A stretch of 64,000 nucleotides of DNA from Patescibacteria group bacterium. Its GTDB lineage: Bacteria > Patescibacteriota > Minisyncoccia > Phycocordibacterales > Phycocordibacteraceae. The notes under the pieces are model-generated. The model saw only the letters and a list, made by a program, of their open reading frames with translations, searched no databases and was not told where the DNA came from. Shown here piece after piece: positions 11,510-18,116 of the stretch; positions within the stretch are counted from its first letter, which is position 1, and each line of letters starts with the position of its first letter. The DNA lies in the NCBI GenBank assembly GCA_040390125.1, contig JAZJYZ010000001.1, positions 570,396 through 634,395 of the forward strand. Reading direction: 5' to 3'. Position numbers and translations under genes: made by a program.

Positions 11510-12883
11510 TTATTTAGGACGAGCCACCACCTTCGCCTCTGTCACTTCTTCAAATCCCCACCGTCCGTGCAAACGGCCTAAGCCTGAGCGTTTGTAGCCA
11601 CCAAAAGGATTCATTGGTCGCACATAGCTCACGCCATTTATACTCACCATTCCAGTTTTGAGAGACGCACTCACTCTTTCTGCCTTTACCTTGTCCTTCG
11701 TGTACACATACGCACCAAGACCGTAGTCAGTATCATTCGCAAGTATTACTGCCTCTTCTTCGGTTTTGAATTTGATGATTGGAAGCACAGGGCCAAACAC
11801 TTCTTCCTGCCACACTCGCATGGTTGGAGTGATGTTAATGAGAAGTGTGGGCTCATAGTATGCACCAAGTAGCCCTGGCTGTTTGCCTCCTGTAAGTACA
11901 AAGGCACCCTTGCCTACCGCATCTGCCACTTGAAGCTCGAGGGTATTCAATTGTTGCTTGGAAGCCAAGGGTCCCATTGTTGTGGTCGGACTCATGGGAT
12001 CACCTAAGCGAACAAGGGTATCCAATCTTCCTTTGAGCATCTGCAACATCTTGTCCCACACATTTTCGTGCACCAACAAACGCTTCAGCGCATCACACGA
12101 CTGCCCTGCATTCAAGAATCGAGAATGATATATACTCCCCACTGCCACATCCAAGTCAGCATCTTCAAACACTATCCCTGGTGCAGAGCCCCCAAGTTCC
12201 ATCACAATTTTCTTCATACCCGCCCCTGCAGTGCGATACAAAGATTCGCCCGCAAGTGTGCTCCCGGTAAAACAAATGAGGTCTATATTTTGGCGTGCTA
12301 AAAGTGCACCCACAGGCCCTTTCCCATACACCTCACTAAAGACTCCGAGAGGTACACCGCTTTCTTTCAGTATCTTTTCAATGAGCTGTCCGCACAGGGG
12401 CACTTCTTCAGAGTGTTTAAAAACTACCGTATTGCCCGCAATCAAGTTCTGTCCACATCCCCAGACGAAATTTGATGCAGGATAATTCCATGGCACGATT
12501 ATACCCACAACGCCCCGAGGCTCACGGTACACAGTGTGAATCTCCTCGCTATTTTCATAGGTAACTTCAGGAGCGAGATATTTTGGAGCGTTATCCAAAT
12601 ACCAAGAAAAGTAGCGAAGCGCATCTTGCACGTCTTCCCTGCTCTCCTTGATAGGCATGCCCATCTCTTTGGTGGCAAGTGTGGCAAACTCTTCCGCCCT
12701 TGAGTTGAGGTTTTGAACGACTCTACGAAGGATTTCGGAGCGACCGGCAACTCCGAGAGCACGCCAGGCAGGGCTCGCATCTCTTGCAGCCTTTACTTTT
12801 GCGATTATCTCTTCTCCCGTTGAAATAGCGATTGAGCCTAGAATCGAGAAGTCATGCGGGCTCATGGAGCGGAAACGCTTCAT
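11510..12883 (-). CDS. NAD(P)-dependent aldehyde dehydrogenase
   Basis: 457 aa with FTGSTLAGESL, ELGGSAPGIVFEDAD and NAGQSCDA (catalytic Cys) motifs. Confidence 0.9.
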   Translation of the reverse strand: MKRFRSMSPHDFSILGSIAISTGEEIIAKVKAARDASPAWRALGVAGRSEILRRVVQNLNSRAEEFATLATKEMGMPIKESREDVQDALRYFSWYLDNAPKYLAPEVTYENSEEIHTVYREPRGVVGIIVPWNYPASNFVWGCGQNLIAGNTVVFKHSEEVPLCGQLIEKILKESGVPLGVFSEVYGKGPVGALLARQNIDLICFTGSTLAGESLYRTAGAGMKKIVMELGGSAPGIVFEDADLDVAVGSIYHSRFLNAGQSCDALKRLLVHENVWDKMLQMLKGRLDTLVRLGDPMSPTTTMGPLASKQQLNTLELQVADAVGKGAFVLTGGKQPGLLGAYYEPTLLINITPTMRVWQEEVFGPVLPIIKFKTEEEAVILANDTDYGLGAYVYTKDKVKAERVSASLKTGMVSINGVSYVRPMNPFGGYKRSGLGRLHGRWGFEEVTEAKVVARPK

Positions 12884-13004
12884 GAGGGGAATTATACGCT
12901 GGGGGTGAGAGAGGGAGTGGGTTTATTCACTGATGGTCTTTCCTCTAGGAGAAATGGTGATTGTTCGCATTTCCACATTCCCCTTACAAGATTGCATCGT
13001 TAGA

Positions 13005-15707
13005 TTAGTTTTCAGGATTAGGTGTTTCGTACAGCCCGTTCGCTGTGAGCACAGCTTTTAGCGTTTCCGGATCATCTTTTATCTCAAACCTCTGTTTGAG
13101 ACGTTCGTGATTCATAACCTCATTCCCACCCCAGAATGCGGCTTTAGCGAGGAGCTCCTTACTTACTTTTGCTCTTTTGGTGATTACCACTAAATCCCCC
13201 AAAGGAATATAGATATTGAAATTACCTTTGTCGTCCCACACAAACCAGTCTCTTGAATTCAAAACATCTTCATAAGAACGCCAGCCCTGTTGCAATGGAA
13301 AATTCTTCCAAAGTACCTCTAATGCCCTCGGGTGTCTTTCCAGTGTACGTGTTGCGGAGTTTCGCATTTGTTTAATACCTAACCGATCATCTTTTTTACC
13401 CGACCATGTCTGATATAAAACAAAGAACGGATGATCTTCTTTTGAGAAGATATCTTGTTTGCCATCAAAATACCTTTCTTTTACCTCACCAAAGACGTGT
13501 TTGATCGAACTTTTTATTTCTTCCTCGTATCCTTTACTTCTCAAGGTTTGCAAGGCGAAAGAAAGGCGTGCATGAACGCTACCAGAGCCCCTAGTGTTAT
13601 TCCCGAAAGAGTTGAGAATAGTAAGCTTCACGTAACTTTGAACATCTTTACTGTAAAATATCTCTTTCAAAAGATCCCAAACTTCTTTCAATTCTTCTGA
13701 CGGCTCTACAATTTGTGGCTCCTGCTCAATAATTGCTAGAGCAAGAAAGATAGCTCTGTAAATCGCATCCTGGTAAACAGAATCCCATTCAGTGTTTTTT
13801 TCTATTGAAAAAGCTTGATCCTTCTTTGTGGACTTGTGAATCAGTCGCCTAATAACTTCCCGAAGAGTCTCTAAAAGCTTTTCCTTGTTGTTAACTTGGC
13901 TTTGAGAAAGGAATCTTGCATACAAAGCCAATTCATCGCCCGGAAGAGCCTTTATAACAGAAGCCCCTTTTGAAATATGCTGATCGTAGATTTCGCGACT
14001 GATCCGATACGTACTCTTATTTTGAGGGGACTCCTTAGTAAAAGTGAGCCACTCTAGCATTTTTTCCGGATCAGAGGTTGAACGAGAATCCCAATACTTC
14101 TGTCTGCCTATGTCAGTCATTTCTGGTGAAGACGGAAATTCTATCCATCTATGAGCCACTAGAGTCAAGAGATCGCCTATATGTTTCTGTTTTTCTGCCG
14201 GTACATCAATACCCATTTCATGCTTTATCCAGCGAAAAATATCACTGATTTTTTCTTCCTGTAGATTTTTTCTATAAAAATACGATCGCATCCCTCCATT
14301 GTTGACGTACTCAGAATACGGACGTACATGTTCAATGGTTTTTCTTATAAAATCAATAAGATACGGAAATCGTATTTTGATGTACTCCAAAACAATTAAG
14401 TCAGCCAATCTAATTGGTAAGCCTAATTTTTTGTCTTCTGAAGAAAACATGGACAGGAAGAATCTAACCGAATTCATCGTTCTTACGAAAGCACGTGGAG
14501 TTTCATCTATAAACACACTAAGTGCAAACTGAAGGGCTGTTTTATCGTCTTCTTGAAAACTTCCATGCGGGAATGAGGAGATACCATATATCTCATGTGA
14601 CCCTACTTTCTTAATCTCTCTCTCCATCAGGCCTTGAGAATCAGTCATCTGATCAAACAAAGTTTTAATGAAAATCTGCTTTTGAAAGGTTGACGGGGTC
14701 GGAATAAAAATCTGAGTTCCTATACTCTTTGGATCATCAAATACAAATTTCCCGACTAGCGCCCCTTTTTCAGATACATTATTGGTTATCACGTCCTGTA
14801 AATCTCGTGGTGAGATGCAGAGAAGAAATACGATTTGTACTGGCAAACCGCCTCTGCCTTCATATTTGAAACGTTCAATAATTTCTATGACGCGATAGAT
14901 TTCCTCCAAATGAGCTCTCTCAAGCTCATCAACAACCACAATGAATTGTCTTTCAGAAAAAAGAGGGATGTTGCCGAAAAATTTTCCAACTCTCCGAGAA
15001 CAGAGTTGCGGATTATTTACCGGGTCCAAGTATTTGTCCCAGACCTTTGCTTTTGTGGGGAATAGTCCGATCCCGTTCAAAGTCAGAAAACGGATAAGTT
15101 CGGCGAATAAACCGTTCTTTGATTCTCTCAAAATAGCTTCCATGACAGGAAGTTGATCTGTCCAACCCAACCTGAAAGGATAGTTTTTTCCTATGGCTTC
15201 AAACCATCGTTCTTGAAAGAGCTTCTCAAAATCTTTTGTTTCGTTCGTTTCTGTGAGAGAAATGTAGCTGTATAACAATGAATCTTTCTTCATCTGCTCA
15301 ACGATCATCCTAGTCAGAGAAGACTTGCCACTGCCCATCTCACCAAAAATACCAACAACACTTACGTAGTCTTCAAGTTCCTGAATGCTTTTTGCATAAT
15401 TCTTTGAAGGAACTTTGAAGTCTAATAAATCTCGTCCAAGTCCAACCGACCAAGGGGAAAACCTAAAACCTCTGTAGGATAAGTTTTTATTGAAAATAGA
15501 TAATCCTGCCAGTGCAACTCCGAGGATAAAAAAACCTAGCAAGGTGATTTCAACTTCTGCGGTTATCCATTTCCCAATATAATGAACTCCCCAGAAGGTA
15601 AAGGTTATAAAAGTAAGTATTATGAAAAGAAGCCATGTTATAGAAAGGAAACGGTATTGTCTCCAAACGTATTTCAGTAAATCCAGAAGTCTCTTCATTA
15701 ACTCCAT
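13005..15707 (-). CDS. Membrane-anchored KAP-family P-loop NTPase (PifA/Tmn-like), 900 aa
   Basis: Two N-terminal TM helices, then Walker A GIFGEMGSGKSSL (KAP-type GxWGxGKS variant), Walker B FIVVVDELERAH (KAP-type hhhhDDLDR variant) and a large alpha-helical C-terminal region. Local AT content looks higher than in neighbouring housekeeping genes. Confidence 0.65.
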   Translation of the reverse strand: MELMKRLLDLLKYVWRQYRFLSITWLLFIILTFITFTFWGVHYIGKWITAEVEITLLGFFILGVALAGLSIFNKNLSYRGFRFSPWSVGLGRDLLDFKVPSKNYAKSIQELEDYVSVVGIFGEMGSGKSSLTRMIVEQMKKDSLLYSYISLTETNETKDFEKLFQERWFEAIGKNYPFRLGWTDQLPVMEAILRESKNGLFAELIRFLTLNGIGLFPTKAKVWDKYLDPVNNPQLCSRRVGKFFGNIPLFSERQFIVVVDELERAHLEEIYRVIEIIERFKYEGRGGLPVQIVFLLCISPRDLQDVITNNVSEKGALVGKFVFDDPKSIGTQIFIPTPSTFQKQIFIKTLFDQMTDSQGLMEREIKKVGSHEIYGISSFPHGSFQEDDKTALQFALSVFIDETPRAFVRTMNSVRFFLSMFSSEDKKLGLPIRLADLIVLEYIKIRFPYLIDFIRKTIEHVRPYSEYVNNGGMRSYFYRKNLQEEKISDIFRWIKHEMGIDVPAEKQKHIGDLLTLVAHRWIEFPSSPEMTDIGRQKYWDSRSTSDPEKMLEWLTFTKESPQNKSTYRISREIYDQHISKGASVIKALPGDELALYARFLSQSQVNNKEKLLETLREVIRRLIHKSTKKDQAFSIEKNTEWDSVYQDAIYRAIFLALAIIEQEPQIVEPSEELKEVWDLLKEIFYSKDVQSYVKLTILNSFGNNTRGSGSVHARLSFALQTLRSKGYEEEIKSSIKHVFGEVKERYFDGKQDIFSKEDHPFFVLYQTWSGKKDDRLGIKQMRNSATRTLERHPRALEVLWKNFPLQQGWRSYEDVLNSRDWFVWDDKGNFNIYIPLGDLVVITKRAKVSKELLAKAAFWGGNEVMNHERLKQRFEIKDDPETLKAVLTANGLYETPNPEN

Positions 15708-15828
15708 ATTCTCATATTACTGCGCAATCTGCCTTCTTACCCAAATGAAGTACTCATAAAATGAAGAAACGGAGTAAATCACCTTTTCTTAAGCCTCACG
15801 GGGAAACCAATCATGGCTCTAGTAATAC

Positions 15829-16386
15829 CTATTTTAAATACTGAAACGGCACCAAATCTACTTTAGCAAATAAACGCTGTGAACTAGATTCTTTTATCAT
15901 ACCCATTGAAGGTGCACCCGCAAAACCTATGTACTCAACCTCCTTTTTCTTTCCATTTCTAACATATTTAATTGCTGGAATCAGGTCGGTATCCGAACTA
16001 ATTACAATAGCAACATCATATAAATTGTCGGCCGCTCCTATGACTAAATCAACAGCTAACTTAACATCAACTCCTTTCTCTCTTATCTTTCCACTGTCGT
16101 ACATAATCTTCCCTGATTTCACCTCGAAACCCGATGTTCGCAAGGCTTCCAGAAACATCTGTTGTTTCTTTACACGATTTTCACCTTCAGATGTATTGTC
16201 ATAATTTTTAACAATTCCAACATAGTATCTTTTAGATACTAAATCTCTTGCTCCAACAATATGTGAAATAAATGCCGAATGATCGAACTTCTTTCCAAGT
16301 TCTGGGAGTCCGAAGGCTTTCAATCTATTGTAAGTATTACTACCATCAATATAAACAGCGACTCTCTGTTTTTTATTGAATATCAT
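15829..16386 (-). CDS. NYN domain (LabA-like, PIN-fold) ribonuclease
   Basis: 185 aa with VAVYIDGSNTY (first acidic motif) and VISSDTDLIPAIKYVR (SxDxD motif), both NYN/DUF88 hallmarks. Confidence 0.8.
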   Translation of the reverse strand: MIFNKKQRVAVYIDGSNTYNRLKAFGLPELGKKFDHSAFISHIVGARDLVSKRYYVGIVKNYDNTSEGENRVKKQQMFLEALRTSGFEVKSGKIMYDSGKIREKGVDVKLAVDLVIGAADNLYDVAIVISSDTDLIPAIKYVRNGKKKEVEYIGFAGAPSMGMIKESSSQRLFAKVDLVPFQYLK

Positions 16387-16561
16387 TAGACCATCATATC
16401 AAAAGAAACCACCCCTGCCCGAAGGACAGAGGTGGTGAGGTTAGAAATATATTTTACCACTATATGAAATATTTTACTAGAGACTATGTGAATAGCCCAC
16501 AAGGCATCTCTATTTTGTCTTTAGTGTCCATGAAATGGGGTCAGCCACCATTTCTCACGGA

Positions 16562-16913
16562 TTAGCCACCATCTTTACGTGTATGAACAGCTATATTTTC
16601 AATTTTTCCTATAGGGGGAGATAAACGAGCACGAGAAGCATAGTGTTTTGCAACGGGGAAAGGAAAAACAAACCTCGAATCCGTTTTTACGTCAGTAAAT
16701 CGATTATTGCCCTCGAGAAAATGAGCTACCTCGTGAGCTTTACGAAACACAGTGTCTAAAAAGAGATAATCAAAAAAAATATGTGCAGTGCTCCCTTCAA
16801 TTTCTAGAGTGCTTTCTTCTCTGCCTGGAAACAAATTCTTTACTTGTGCTTCTATCGTTGATTTCATGAGGGGTTTATTATACATATCTTTTATACTTAA
16901 GTCAAAACACATT
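16562..16913 (-). CDS. Small HExxH-motif protein (possible ImmA/IrrE-like metallopeptidase fragment)
   Basis: The ORF track starts at a TTG (17002) inside a hairpin-rich region, so the start is more likely ATG at about 16913 (MCFDLSIKD...). It contains FRKAHEVAHFLEG. A hairpin plus T-rich tail follows at 16405-16440. Confidence 0.35.
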
Positions 16914-17192
16914 TTCTGACAAGAAAAATGGTGACGGGCACCATTTCTTAAACCTTGCGGGGAAACGGCAAGTTTTGGGGTCACTTGTGGCCCACAACTC
17001 AAAACTTTGCCGTCGCAGAGTATTTAAATACTCTGCTTGGGGTCACTTGTGGTCATCCGTCACTAAGTATTTTGTTTCGGAAACTCACAAAATACTAAGT
17101 GCGCTCGACCCCGCCTCGCCCGTCGCAGGCGACATGGCTCCGGCTGTCACAAAGTCAAAAAAATGCCGAGCAGTCGGCATGTTTTTGTACTT

Positions 17193-17213
17193 TGTGACCC
17201 CACGGAGAATCGC
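17193..17213 (-). repeat. Direct repeat of the tRNA-Glu 3' end (18/20 nt identical over T-loop to acceptor), att-like
   Basis: The reverse complement of 17193-17213 is GGCGATTCTCCGTGGGGTCAC, against tRNA ...TCGATTCCCCGTGGGGTCAC. It has the same orientation as the tRNA and lies 130 bp from its 3' end. Confidence 0.45.
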
Positions 17214-17343
17214 CTCTCGTCGTTGCTACGACTCGAAACCTACGGTCGCTCTTCGCTCCCTGCGGCCCGCGGTTCGATTCCCAGCTGGAGTATTCTCCAG
17301 ACACAAGAAAACGCCCGCTTCTGAAGCGGGAATTTTTCTTGTG

Positions 17344-17418
17344 TGGTGACCCCACGGGGAATCGAACCCCGATTCCATCCTTGAGAAGGATGTGTCCTAA
17401 CCGTTAGACGATAGGGCC
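17344..17418 (-). tRNA. tRNA-Glu (anticodon CUC), CCA encoded
   Basis: Folded by hand: acceptor GGCCCUA/UGGGGUC, D-stem GUCU/GGAC, anticodon stem CAUCC/GGAUG with loop UUCUCAA, T-arm CGGGG-UUCGAUU-CCCCG, discriminator A, CCA. A hairpin terminator follows at 17311-17340. Confidence 0.85.
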
Positions 17419-17611: not shown

Positions 17612-17962
17612 TCATTCCACAACTACAAGATGAGGTCTTTTGGGAGGTTTGGTCGGAGCGGGTTGAGATGCTTTTCTTGCTTCATCTGCTCTATCCTCTC
17701 TTCCCTCCTCTATCACACCTAACCTAGACATGACCTTTCCAATATGCTCAAACTCTTTTACAAGCGCCCCTCGCTTTCCCGATGTATTTGCACCCAAGGC
17801 TCGCTGAATCAAATTGGATAACCGTAGAGTATTCCTTGCGGATAGATGATCTGTGCGGTTGAGGATTATTTCGATATCAGCAAATGCCGCATCATTCAAC
17901 CACTCTACGAACTCTCTCGCTTCGCTTAATTTGTCCTCAAGTCTTTCTCTTTTTATTACCAT
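17612..17962 (-). CDS. Hypothetical protein flanked by heptamer-type inverted repeats
   Basis: The ORF opens at 18007, with a plausible start at MVIKRERLED. It has no clear domain and is bracketed by inverted heptamer arms at 17431-17460 and 18078-18112. Confidence 0.4.
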   Translation of the reverse strand: MVIKRERLEDKLSEAREFVEWLNDAAFADIEIILNRTDHLSARNTLRLSNLIQRALGANTSGKRGALVKEFEHIGKVMSRLGVIEEGREDRADEARKASQPAPTKPPKRPHLVVVE

Positions 17963-18116
17963 TTCTTTGATAAGTAGGATACCTACTATGTGTCCATAAT
18001 AAAACAAAAATATAAAATGTCAAAGAAATCTAACCTGGGGTATTACGCAAAGCAAATAACTTCTCCCTCCTCCCCAAAAGCTGGAAGCTGACAGCTGGAA
18101 CCTGAAAGCTTATCTT

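Follow-up and report, generated by a model that had tools for sequence, protein, structure and literature searches.

Single-gene defences built on a membrane KAP NTPase, namely EF_KAP and three metagenomic KAP ORFs (PLoS Biol 2026; PMC13552941), carry transmembrane (TM) helices and C-terminal regions without a known domain, and they restrict phages, for which Walker B and the C-terminal region are each required. PifA, the KAP-family protein through which the F plasmid excludes T7, reportedly has no TM helices (PMC13001434). A 2023 preprint (10.1101/2022.08.21.504612) counted Tmn among the KAP NTPases; the protein has since been assigned to the YobI family, its two TM helices being inserted within the P-loop domain (PMC13001434). 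In type III toxin–antitoxin (TA) systems (ToxIN, CptIN and TenpIN), a non-coding RNA and a terminator lie immediately upstream of an endoribonuclease gene (PMC3401426). HEC-09, a candidate with an NYN domain that occurs within Hma systems, failed to protect against any of the phages with which it was challenged (10.1101/2024.01.29.577857).

Here we analysed a locus from a Patescibacteria (Paceibacteria-like) genome within a 64,000-nt stretch of DNA (the window), in which genes for a KAP NTPase and an NYN-domain RNase and a small gene, ORF3, lie beside tRNA-Glu (Table 1). The positions of the ORFs and the tRNA agree with the original prediction of three consecutive minus-strand genes, which had been read as one defence module. 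Our data point to a different picture: the region downstream of the MurF–tRNA-Glu junction is probably a recombination-prone variable slot, in which the KAP gene, the NYN unit and ORF3 stand side by side as three independent units. We base this independence on the lack of KAP–NYN–ORF3 synteny, the unlike sizes and conservation of the KAP and NYN families and a swap of cargo in a syntenic relative, L114.

Table 1. Features of the tRNA-Glu locus, in window coordinates.
Feature	Coordinates	Strand	Basis or detail
tRNA-Glu(CTC)	17344..17418	-	ARAGORN; Rfam tRNA 58.9 bits; 98.6% identity to syntenic L114
Hairpin-dense spacer	16955..17345	.	tRNA-like fragments, perfect palindromes; repeats D15, I9, I12, I14
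Partial duplicate of tRNA-Glu 3' end and its downstream hairpin	17175..17212	-	38-nt repeat D3
ORF3 upstream region	16877..16966	-	tRNA-3'-like 12-mer, hairpin GAAATGGTG..CACCATTT, then TTGACT-17-TATAAT promoter
ORF3, 101 aa	16562..16867	-	84% DNA identity to L114, same position
Variable cargo segment (NYN unit and KAP)	12942..16557	.	blastn synteny breakpoints versus L114 at 16558 and 12941
11-nt inverted-repeat arm GAGAAATGGTG	16546..16556	-	ORF3-side cargo edge; 2 nt from synteny breakpoint
Promoter region of NYN element	16445..16500	-	DnaA-box-like TATTCACA; extended -10 TGgTAAAAT
RNA-sized element, ~45 nt	16399..16444	-	CUAACCUC, 13-bp hairpin (ACCACCUCUGUCC/GGGCAGGGGUGGU), U-tract; terminator scan
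NYN-domain RNase, 185 aa	15829..16386	-	Pfam NYN 73.8 bits (cut-off 24.2)
Element upstream of KAP	15767..15807	-	homologous to ORF3-upstream element, 28 nt, 86% (D4)
KAP-family P-loop NTPase, membrane-anchored, 900 aa	13005..15707	-	TM aa 20-38 and 54-72; Walker A 122-129; Walker B 256-263
11-nt inverted-repeat arm CACCATTTCTC	12949..12959	-	ALDH-side cargo edge; 8 nt from synteny breakpoint
Aldehyde dehydrogenase (ALDH)	11510..12883	-	Pfam Aldedh; 92% aa, 85% DNA identity to L114

Cargo and flanks at the tRNA-Glu locus

The tRNA-Glu(CTC) gene, the sole tRNA gene within the window, is a native and conserved anchor, and the order MurF followed by tRNA-Glu was found in most of 80 CPR (metagenome) loci. 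At its distal end the variable slot is flanked by ALDH, which is conserved. L114 keeps MurF, tRNA-Glu, ORF3 and ALDH around a cargo of its own, a different 5.0-kb segment of four genes (GC 0.372 versus 0.449) that stands where the NYN and KAP genes stand here and includes one gene with a TIR-like PADLOC match.

The composition of the three genes is foreign. GC is 0.38–0.40 at 13–17 kb compared with ~0.45 in the rest of the window, so that an AT richness originally judged by eye holds up when computed by window and by gene. Among the 55 window ORFs of at least 120 aa, the three lowest GC values belong to the NYN gene (0.357, z = −5.0), ORF3 (0.382, z = −3.7) and the KAP gene (0.393, z = −3.1); the NYN gene also has low GC3.

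The partial duplicate of tRNA-Glu is an att-like scar. The 12-mer CCGTGGGGTCAC occurs only in this duplicate and in tRNA-Glu itself (0.08 expected), and on L099, another contig from CPR, the 3' end of tRNA-Glu matches the duplicate at 19/19 nt. The hairpin-dense spacer has a minimum free energy of −175.4 versus −121 ± 5.7 kcal/mol (z = −9.6), and no similarity was found between it and the L114 spacer. The islet contains no integrase gene.

ORF3 is a member of a rare orphan family and belongs to the conserved flank, not to the cargo; only two true relatives were found among 1.8 billion representatives. It was first listed as a 146-aa frame starting at a TTG (16562–17002, minus strand), but most likely starts at the ATG at 16867, because this codon comes just after the TTGACT-17-TATAAT promoter and the closest homologue, P0176 (101 aa), aligns from that Met. 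The region upstream of ORF3 is conserved in L114. An ImmA-like peptidase had been suggested on the strength of its HEVAH motif; this and any other metallopeptidase assignment were rejected, as the Pfam HMM search returned no match and the only two relatives have KVMAN or HQVAS in place of the motif.

The NYN gene and its hairpin element

The NYN protein is a member of a large and strongly conserved CPR family with more than 1,300 homologues, the best 120 of which are 64–80% identical to it. D14, N17, D107, D132 and D134 are invariant, and the catalytic residues are all intact. An HMM match to the PADLOC candidate HEC-09 (68.9 bits) was set aside because it reflects the shared domain only: both proteins have an NYN/PIN-like domain with conserved aspartates, whereas HEC-09 carries an extra HTH-like part at its N terminus and the NYN protein here lies outside any Hma system.

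A new finding of this analysis is a nearly invariant promoter–hairpin–terminator element (~45 nt) that precedes every NYN gene examined (12 lineages). The model CM R1 scored 53–69 bits at 11/11 NYN loci and gave no further significant match across 1.53 Mb, and an NYN–ASCH locus (L127) gave an independent match at 44 bits; Rfam contained no match. This exclusive linkage makes the NYN gene an RNA-plus-RNase unit of its own. In alignments of 9 and 11 loci, the promoters have a −35 TTGnnn, a 17-nt spacer and TGTATAAT, with TT(A/T)TCCACAG upstream. The hairpin has an invariant stem and a variable loop, and 97.9% of the cells in its alignment are paired; two pairs carry compensatory changes that come from one or two divergent lineages, the signal being mostly sequence conservation. 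Between the terminator and the NYN ATG, every locus has a second promoter-like −10 box.

We propose that the strong promoter would fire into an invariant ~45-nt RNA consisting of a 5' tail, the 13-bp hairpin and a U-tract terminator, while the second −10 box would serve a putatively leaderless NYN start. The RNA would most likely control NYN, acting as a leader or decoy for autoregulation, which the RNase binds or cuts, or else as an RNA antidote.

A possible reading, to which we give less than even weight, is that Paceibacteria-type CPR use NYN as a resident housekeeping enzyme for RNA processing, that the hairpin is simply a 5' leader or attenuator for autoregulation, of the kind seen at rnc and rne, and that KAP lies next to NYN by chance. 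The high protein identity extends over many CPR classes, some loci lie among core genes (ribosomal proteins, rpoA, a PPDK–enolase cluster), and an invariant stem with a variable loop fits a protein-binding site. There is also about one copy for each CPR genome equivalent of sampled DNA (2 copies in ~1.3 Mb), a density equally in keeping with a housekeeping RNase and with a mobile unit. However, the NYN gene has no conserved synteny, sits within a segment missing from the same site in a close relative and is the lowest-GC gene of the window; the extra promoter-like box at every locus also speaks against this reading.

We consider it unlikely that the hairpin RNA and NYN form a type III-like TA pair, mobile among CPR, in which the small RNA neutralizes or titrates an RNase toxin and which may serve abortive infection or island stabilization. 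Such a pair would be in keeping with the exclusive linkage, with a conserved promoter and a terminator ahead of the nuclease gene as in type III layouts (PMC3401426) and with the intact catalytic residues. It would also fit the variable neighbours of NYN, which are often TA genes (HicAB, ParE, Phd, AbiEii, Zeta and Fic), and a GC below that of the flanks in the window and at 4/4 other loci. By contrast, type III systems have a tandem repeat array and a ToxN fold, whereas the unit here has a single hairpin, a separate promoter for the nuclease and an NYN fold of putative toxicity. The very high protein conservation and roughly one copy per genome look more like housekeeping, no NYN copies were found on viral contigs, and we found no published precedent of an NYN toxin with an RNA partner.

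The membrane-anchored KAP NTPase

The 900-aa protein matches Pfam KAP_NTPase at 42.7 bits (cut-off 20) over residues 100–417, so that both the KAP and the NYN assignments of the original prediction are supported by HMMs. The motifs on which it drew (GEMGSGKSS and VVVDELERA here, YIDGSN and SSDTDLIP in NYN, HEVAH in ORF3) were all recovered in the translations, and the membrane anchor it had named was located in two hydrophobic N-terminal helices. No TM segment lies between Walker A and Walker B. The structure comprises the ATPase core and an α-solenoid (residues ~430–900), with no nuclease, protease or other enzymatic effector fold.

Proteins of the EF_KAP class likewise join a KAP NTPase domain to TM helices and to a long C-terminal region without a known domain, all encoded by one gene. 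The likeness is one of architecture; EF_KAP has one N-terminal TM helix and one inside the domain, whereas both are N-terminal here. Members of either group lie near serine recombinases and further defence or mobile genes, although the recombinases near the present family are large serine recombinases, none of which occurs in the window, and the present protein comes from a CPR bacterium. PifA shares the KAP-type P-loop and ranks first among the PADLOC matches of 20 of the 36 family members, yet its match to this protein spans ~50 residues around Walker A (30 bits) and the C-terminal regions are unrelated; beyond this weak match, PADLOC returned none for the family. Tmn had been invoked as a KAP-family likeness, which its move to YobI (PMC13001434) and the position of the TM helices, inside its P-loop domain and N-terminal to the domain here, no longer favour, and PADLOC gave no Tmn match for the protein. 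Tmn is nonetheless a single-gene membrane P-loop NTPase with α-helical, solenoid-like cytosolic arms, and the common layout suggests a membrane-level output. For RdrA (RADAR) and STAND/AAA+ ATPases (ORC/Cdc6, NLRs, Avs, BrxC), only a core of ~220–280 residues aligns, and the present protein differs in being membrane-anchored and in having no partner deaminase or effector gene.

About 55 homologues were found, at most 55% and mostly 30–37% identical, with a patchy spread over CPR, Rickettsiales, Bdellovibrionales, Omnitrophota, Elusimicrobia and Endomicrobia MAGs. Their GC is lower than that of the flanks in 17/17 loci, and their neighbourhoods contain serine recombinases, tyrosine integrases, type I/II restriction–modification (R-M) genes, an SLFN helicase and YoeB, with no recurrent neighbour family across the loci. 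We infer that the protein is a new, solitary and horizontally acquired member of the single-gene membrane KAP class with a putative anti-phage role, in line with its original labelling as a defence-type gene. Its cytosolic α-solenoid would most likely be a sensor or scaffold. On the model of PifA and of the single-gene KAP systems assayed in Enterococcus, NTP binding and hydrolysis could switch the conformation or oligomeric state of the protein at the membrane and thereby block phages or other incoming DNA.

The protein might instead be a membrane scaffold or signalling NTPase, for instance one that small-genome symbionts use at the cell surface or in contact with a host. The patchy spread over the lineages listed above, the absence of an effector domain and the α-solenoid, a generic protein-interaction scaffold, would suit such a role, but we think it improbable given the low GC relative to flanks at every locus, the recombinase, R-M and TA genes among the neighbours, the different cargo, including a TIR-like gene, in its place in a close relative, and the experimental defence phenotype of a like architecture (PMC13552941).

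Relationship among the three genes

Across 28 KAP loci, NYN is adjacent to the KAP homologue in 0/28 and ORF3 is present in 0/28, and the sole close NYN copy lies 6 kb away (L002); no KAP gene adjoins NYN in the other NYN contexts examined. The closest KAP homologue (P0002, 55%) shares the coding sequence only, with different neighbours. The original idea of an abortive-infection module, in which the membrane NTPase is the sensor of infection, the NYN RNase is the effector that it licenses and ORF3 is an ImmA-like peptidase, could draw on three adjacent, same-strand, low-GC genes, on the inverted repeat that brackets NYN and KAP and on an upstream element common to ORF3 and KAP, but is largely refuted by these synteny data and appears very improbable, as the closest KAP homologue lacks both partners, ORF3 flanks different cargo in L114 and its HExxH is not conserved, NYN has its own conserved regulatory element, and KAP, NYN and ORF3 each have their own −10 box directly at the ATG.

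With three independent units as the preferred reading, the 11-nt inverted repeat at both edges of the NYN and KAP segment indicates that these two genes may have moved at least once as one piece, and co-function of the pair in this genome is therefore conceivable. The elements upstream of KAP and ORF3 each lie ~100 nt ahead of the ATG, and both share TTCCCCGYRRGG with the tRNA 3' end.

The tRNA-Glu locus and its exchangeable cargo

The window lies within a 749-kb contig of a Patescibacteria (CPR) metagenome-assembled genome. After division and cell-wall genes (PBP, MurF), its minus strand carries a 131-aa open reading frame (ORF), tRNA-Glu(CTC), a 391-nt spacer, ORF3, the NYN gene, the KAP gene and an aldehyde dehydrogenase (ALDH) gene. 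The original prediction had joined ORF3, NYN and KAP into one candidate defence module of a KAP-family NTPase, a NYN RNase and a HExxH-bearing, possibly ImmA-like peptidase. All motifs it quoted were found in the translations of the three genes, and its impression of an AT-rich stretch was borne out by windowed analysis: GC drops to 0.38-0.40 over 13-17 kb, and KAP, NYN and ORF3 are the three lowest-GC genes among the 55 ORFs of the window (z -3.1 to -5.0). The three genes are real and foreign-looking. The module is not supported, as its members do not co-occur in the loci of relatives, whether approached from the KAP, the NYN or the MurF side.

Coordinates of the features discussed (positions without a locus name are window positions; L-numbers denote fetched loci of relatives)
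Feature	Location	Strand	Remark
tRNA-Glu(CTC)	17344-17418	minus	sole tRNA of the window
ORF3	16562-17002	minus	as listed
NYN	15829-16386	minus	185 aa
KAP	13005-15707	minus	900 aa
Window cargo	12942-16557		3.6 kb, NYN and KAP
Inverted repeat GAGAAATGGTG/CACCATTTCTC	16546-16556 and 12949-12959		11 nt; bounds the NYN and KAP cargo
TTCCCCGYRRGG copies	in tRNA; upstream of ORF3; upstream of KAP	minus	att-like
tRNA-Glu/ORF3 spacer	16955-17345		about 8 near-perfect hairpins in a chain, MFE z -9.6; holds the tRNA-Glu 3'-end copy
Inverted T-arm-like 15-mer	17268-17282		in spacer
Perfect 16-mers TTGGGGTCACTTGTGG	16975 and 17037		in spacer, two copies
22-nt palindrome	17015-17036		in spacer
Second variable slot	17612-18007; L114:6588-7388		between MurF and tRNA-Glu
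Alternative cargo	L114:8373-13233		four genes
Cargo gene, 177 aa	L114	minus	weak NMN-transporter-like match
Cargo gene, 294 aa	L114		TIR-like PADLOC match, E 1.6e-7
Cargo genes, 510 and 567 aa	L114		no matches
NYN-upstream element, whole (promoter to U-tract)	16399-16500	minus	
NYN-upstream element, RNA-sized part	16399-16444	minus	hairpin also called by terminator scan
DnaA-box-like motif	~16486-16497	minus	
Element copies	L030:5934-5978; L031:5941-5985; L117:4945-4991; L119:4937-4983; L122:4940-4984; L123:3934-3979; L124:3933-3977; L125:3937-3983; L002:18298-18344; L100:19955-19999; L127:3915-3961		
AAA_33/Zeta_toxin-type kinase	L031:4932-5801; L122:5555-6067; L125:4897-5589		next to or near NYN
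NYN-ASCH fusion	L127:4001-4864		

Flank and cargo could be told apart with a syntenic Paceibacterota contig, L114, which was reached through an ORF3 homologue and not through the MurF scan. Window and contig share the order RsmH, FtsL, PBP, MurF, tRNA-Glu, ORF3 with its promoter and, later, ALDH and DUF305, with identities of 78% for MurF and 92% for ALDH (amino acids), 98.6% for tRNA-Glu and 84% for ORF3 with its promoter (DNA). Between ORF3 and ALDH they have no sequence in common: the NYN and KAP genes occupy this interval in the window, and 5.0 kb with four other genes (GC 0.372 versus 0.449) occupy it in L114, where they may constitute an uncharacterised defence system. Because L114 keeps ORF3 beside different cargo, we regard ORF3 as flank and NYN and KAP as exchangeable hotspot cargo. 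The second variable slot holds the 131-aa ORF, which has no family match, in the window and an inositol-monophosphatase-family gene in L114. No close relative with an empty site was reached via MurF, for which the best metagenome relatives were at most 57% identical. The placement of tRNA-Glu(CTC) directly downstream of MurF is widely conserved on CPR metagenome contigs (L034-L113). Very little is known about phage resistance in these bacteria; since the cargo of the slot past MurF and tRNA-Glu is KAP and NYN here but a TIR-like gene set in L114, the slot offers a practical bait for CPR defence genes.

Searches of Pfam, NCBIfam and PADLOC gave no match for ORF3, and only two true relatives were found among 1.84 billion representatives: P0176, which is 76% identical and encoded on L114, and P0178. 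As the HEVAH of ORF3 reads KVMAN in the former and HQVAS in the latter, the proposal that it is an ImmA/IrrE-type (M78) metallopeptidase fails. Its homologues measure 101 and 100 aa, and just 5' of the correspondingly shorter frame lies a near-consensus promoter; together these place the true start of ORF3 at the ATG at 16867. A further match, P0177, was discarded; this 1,402-aa protein consists of 20 perfect 70-aa tandem repeats, which inflate the summed HMMER score, matches through an FPFP motif only and is probably an assembly artefact.

Like tRNA-linked islands, the locus adjoins a tRNA, contains a direct repeat of its 3' end, deviates in composition and varies in content between relatives; it lacks the integrase at the tRNA-proximal end, with no integrase or recombinase ORF between 11.5 and 18.1 kb. 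We read it as a decayed tRNA-linked hotspot. The direct repeat, 38 nt long and 152 bp downstream of tRNA-Glu, duplicates the 3' end of the tRNA together with the hairpin that trails it; over a 19-nt core it matches the tRNA-Glu 3' end of another CPR genome exactly. Three copies of the 12-mer TTCCCCGYRRGG are present in the 64 kb, always on the minus strand, when 0.04 copies would be expected for this pattern, which was chosen after its sites had been seen. A 28-nt element, 86% identical between the two genes, also precedes both ORF3 and KAP, about 100 nt 5' of each ATG. The arms of the inverted repeat lie within 2 and 8 nt of the synteny breakpoints, and given this repeat NYN and KAP could have moved once as a single piece. 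A related hairpin, GAAATGGTG..CACCATTT, lies upstream of ORF3 and is kept in L114. The hairpin-rich spacer is not conserved in L114, and its fragments recur nowhere else other than at tRNA-Glu 3' ends.

In a rough scan, an SD-like tetramer preceded just 3 of 56 window ORFs, and in many ORFs, ALDH, KAP, NYN and ORF3 among them, a TANNNT box ended 4-10 nt ahead of the ATG; initiation in this genome appears to be largely leaderless or SD-independent.

The KAP NTPase and its neighbours

The domain claims of the original prediction held for both cargo proteins. KAP matches Pfam KAP_NTPase (PF07693) with 42.7 bits (cut-off 20) over residues 100-417, covering profile positions 4-289 of 293, and contains Walker A (GEMGSGKS, residues 122-129) and Walker B (VVVDELER, residues 256-263) motifs. 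Residues G122, G125, G127, K128, S129, D260, E261 and R264 are the same in all 36 homologues aligned. The transmembrane (TM) helices, two in KAP and two to four across its homologues, all lie N-terminal to Walker A, and neither KAP nor its homologues have a hydrophobic segment between Walker A and B (residues 129-256 in KAP). The protein has the alpha-helical or superhelical accessory region of the family, and its AF2 model is confident (pLDDT 82.6). A sequence search of KAP and NYN against solved structures returned nothing useful.

PADLOC matches of KAP to PifA, QatA and PDC families were confined to the P-loop, and assignment to these families was rejected; the PifA match (30.1 bits) spanned only residues 93-142, against a 720-position profile, and thus falls short of full-length similarity. 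Sources diverge as to whether the TM helices of KAP proteins sit inside the domain or outside it, the 2004 Aravind paper reportedly differing on this from PMC13001434. Tmn, cited as a KAP protein in the original prediction and called a KAP NTPase in an earlier preprint, is now assigned to the YobI family, with TM helices within the P-loop domain (PMC13001434). Membership of KAP in the Tmn group was rejected on TM topology: Tmn has two TM helices within the P-loop domain, whereas KAP has none between residues 129 and 256 and carries its helices N-terminal to Walker A.

No recurring partner of KAP emerged at the loci compared. About 55 homologues were found in 5.8 billion sequences, the top match being 55% identical and the majority 30-37%. 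In 28 loci with KAP relatives taken from GTDB genomes, tblastn found a close NYN copy once (L002, 6 kb away from KAP) and two distant NYN-like matches several kb from KAP, and no match to ORF3. All-against-all clustering of three genes per side gave no recurrent partner, the clusters comprising KAP fragments, near-relative synteny and one serine-recombinase cluster of five members. The closest homologue, P0002, has four small unrelated genes upstream and only its coding sequence in common with the window. From the other side, NYN has more than 1,300 homologues, the best 120 of which are 64-80% identical and spread over many CPR groups; nine further loci fetched through them lacked KAP and had unrelated neighbours. 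Across 80 MurF-anchored CPR loci (951 kb), KAP and ORF3 were absent and NYN was seen once, 8 kb off the tRNA. Proximity to a tRNA is not a general trait of the KAP family, with a tRNA within 5 kb at about 7 of 26 loci, close to the expectation from tRNA density.

The family bears signs of mobility. Its genes are lower in GC than their flanks at all 17 loci (mean gap 6.9 points), and its distribution is patchy, covering CPR, Omnitrophota, Elusimicrobia, Rickettsiales, Bdellovibrionales and some Gammaproteobacteria. Found nearby are, among others, large serine recombinases, tyrosine integrases, type I/II restriction-modification (R-M) genes, an SLFN helicase and YoeB. Of 77 neighbour proteins, which also include integrases and R-M proteins, 4 have a Resolvase domain; these are large rather than small serine recombinases, and none lies in the window. 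No KAP relatives were found on IMG/VR contigs, and a PHROG match was trivial. At four loci (L014, L017, L018 and L020) the KAP homologue is broken up into two or three neighbouring ORFs; these may be frameshifted pseudogenes or assembly errors, and split genes would be in keeping with accessory-gene turnover.

Single-gene TM-KAP NTPases with C-terminal regions of unknown function restrict phages, and both Walker B and the C-terminal region are required (PMC13552941). KAP is therefore most readily classed as a new member of these TM-KAP single-gene defences, and it is a plausible solo defence gene. Judging by PifA and by EF_KAP, one of the validated proteins, its solenoid would act as a sensor that drives an NTP-dependent switch and an output at the membrane. 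A mobile TM-KAP family with a conserved alpha-solenoid would carry this class into ultra-small bacteria, and KAP would offer a compact case for how an NTPase lacking an enzymatic effector stops infection at the membrane.

An RNA element upstream of NYN genes

NYN matches Pfam NYN (PF01936) with 73.8 bits (cut-off 24.2), and its catalytic residues D14, N17, D107, D132 and D134 are unchanged throughout 36 sequences. It also matches PADLOC HEC-09 (68.9 bits), which reflects the shared domain alone. HEC-09 conferred no phage protection when tested, according to its source paper, and no Hma genes lie nearby, so we rejected NYN as a HEC-09 defence system.

The more original result of the analysis is an RNA element linked to NYN. 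When the 200 nt 5' of NYN were aligned for nine loci whose flanks are unrelated, and then for 11 loci with L002 and L100 added, a near-invariant element about 45 nt long, made up of a promoter, a 13-bp hairpin and a U-tract, emerged directly upstream of every sampled NYN of the family. At most loci it is preceded by a DnaA-box-like TT(A/T)TCCACAG. There follow a -35 TTGnnn, a 17-nt spacer, TGTATAAT and about 8 nt, then CUAAC(CU/AG)C, the hairpin ACCACCUCUGUCC/GGGCAGGGGUGGU with a variable loop and the U-tract, and finally, 6-9 nt ahead of the NYN ATG, a second -10-like box. The stem and its T-tract lie 15-40 nt 5' of this ATG. Pairing is preserved in 97.9% of the alignment cells, with compensatory changes at two pairs and one-sided, pairing-preserving changes at four. 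A covariance model recovered the 11 NYN loci, each with 53-69 bits, and found nothing else significant in 1.53 Mb, the next-best match (24 bits) being the reverse strand of a training site; outside the training set it detected the element upstream of a NYN-ASCH fusion (44 bits, E 7e-9). No Rfam family matches the element, and a search of viral contigs found no copy. It is an unannotated, highly conserved RNA motif tied to a single RNase family, and because it sits upstream of NYN only in the sequence searched, we treat NYN as an autonomous unit of RNA element and RNase.

Judged from sequence, the element is a candidate small RNA or leader controlling the NYN RNase. It may serve as an autoregulatory leader or as a decoy, with NYN in a housekeeping role, a reading to which we give appreciable but less than even weight. 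By eye, the hairpin RNA has no convincing complementarity to the NYN 5' coding region. That the RNA is instead an antidote paired with NYN, as in type III toxin-antitoxin (TA) systems, seems unlikely: a terminator does lie between the RNA locus and the endoribonuclease gene, as in those systems, but type III antitoxin RNAs come in tandem repeats, whereas a single hairpin unit was found in 12 of 12 loci. Equally unlikely is the broader idea that the RNA directly neutralises or programmes NYN, making the pair of NYN toxin and single-hairpin RNA a new TA or immunity module, type III-like and widespread in CPR bacteria; we found no literature linking NYN to an RNA partner or RNA antitoxin. If true, KAP would be a second, independent defence gene of the same hotspot, alongside the NYN-RNA module.

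The sole recurring P-loop neighbour of NYN is an AAA_33/Zeta-type kinase, present at three loci; in L122 its gene overlaps the NYN stop codon. NYN and this kinase may form a recurrent pairing. The DnaA-box-like motif lies directly 5' of the -35 in the window and in L125, L002, L100, L123 and L127, and is inverted in L030, L031 and L124; a regulator may bind there. Certain NYN-family proteins (P0152, P0164, P0169; locus L127) carry a fused ASCH (PF04266) RNA-binding domain at the C-terminus, and the fusion on L127 keeps the upstream hairpin element.
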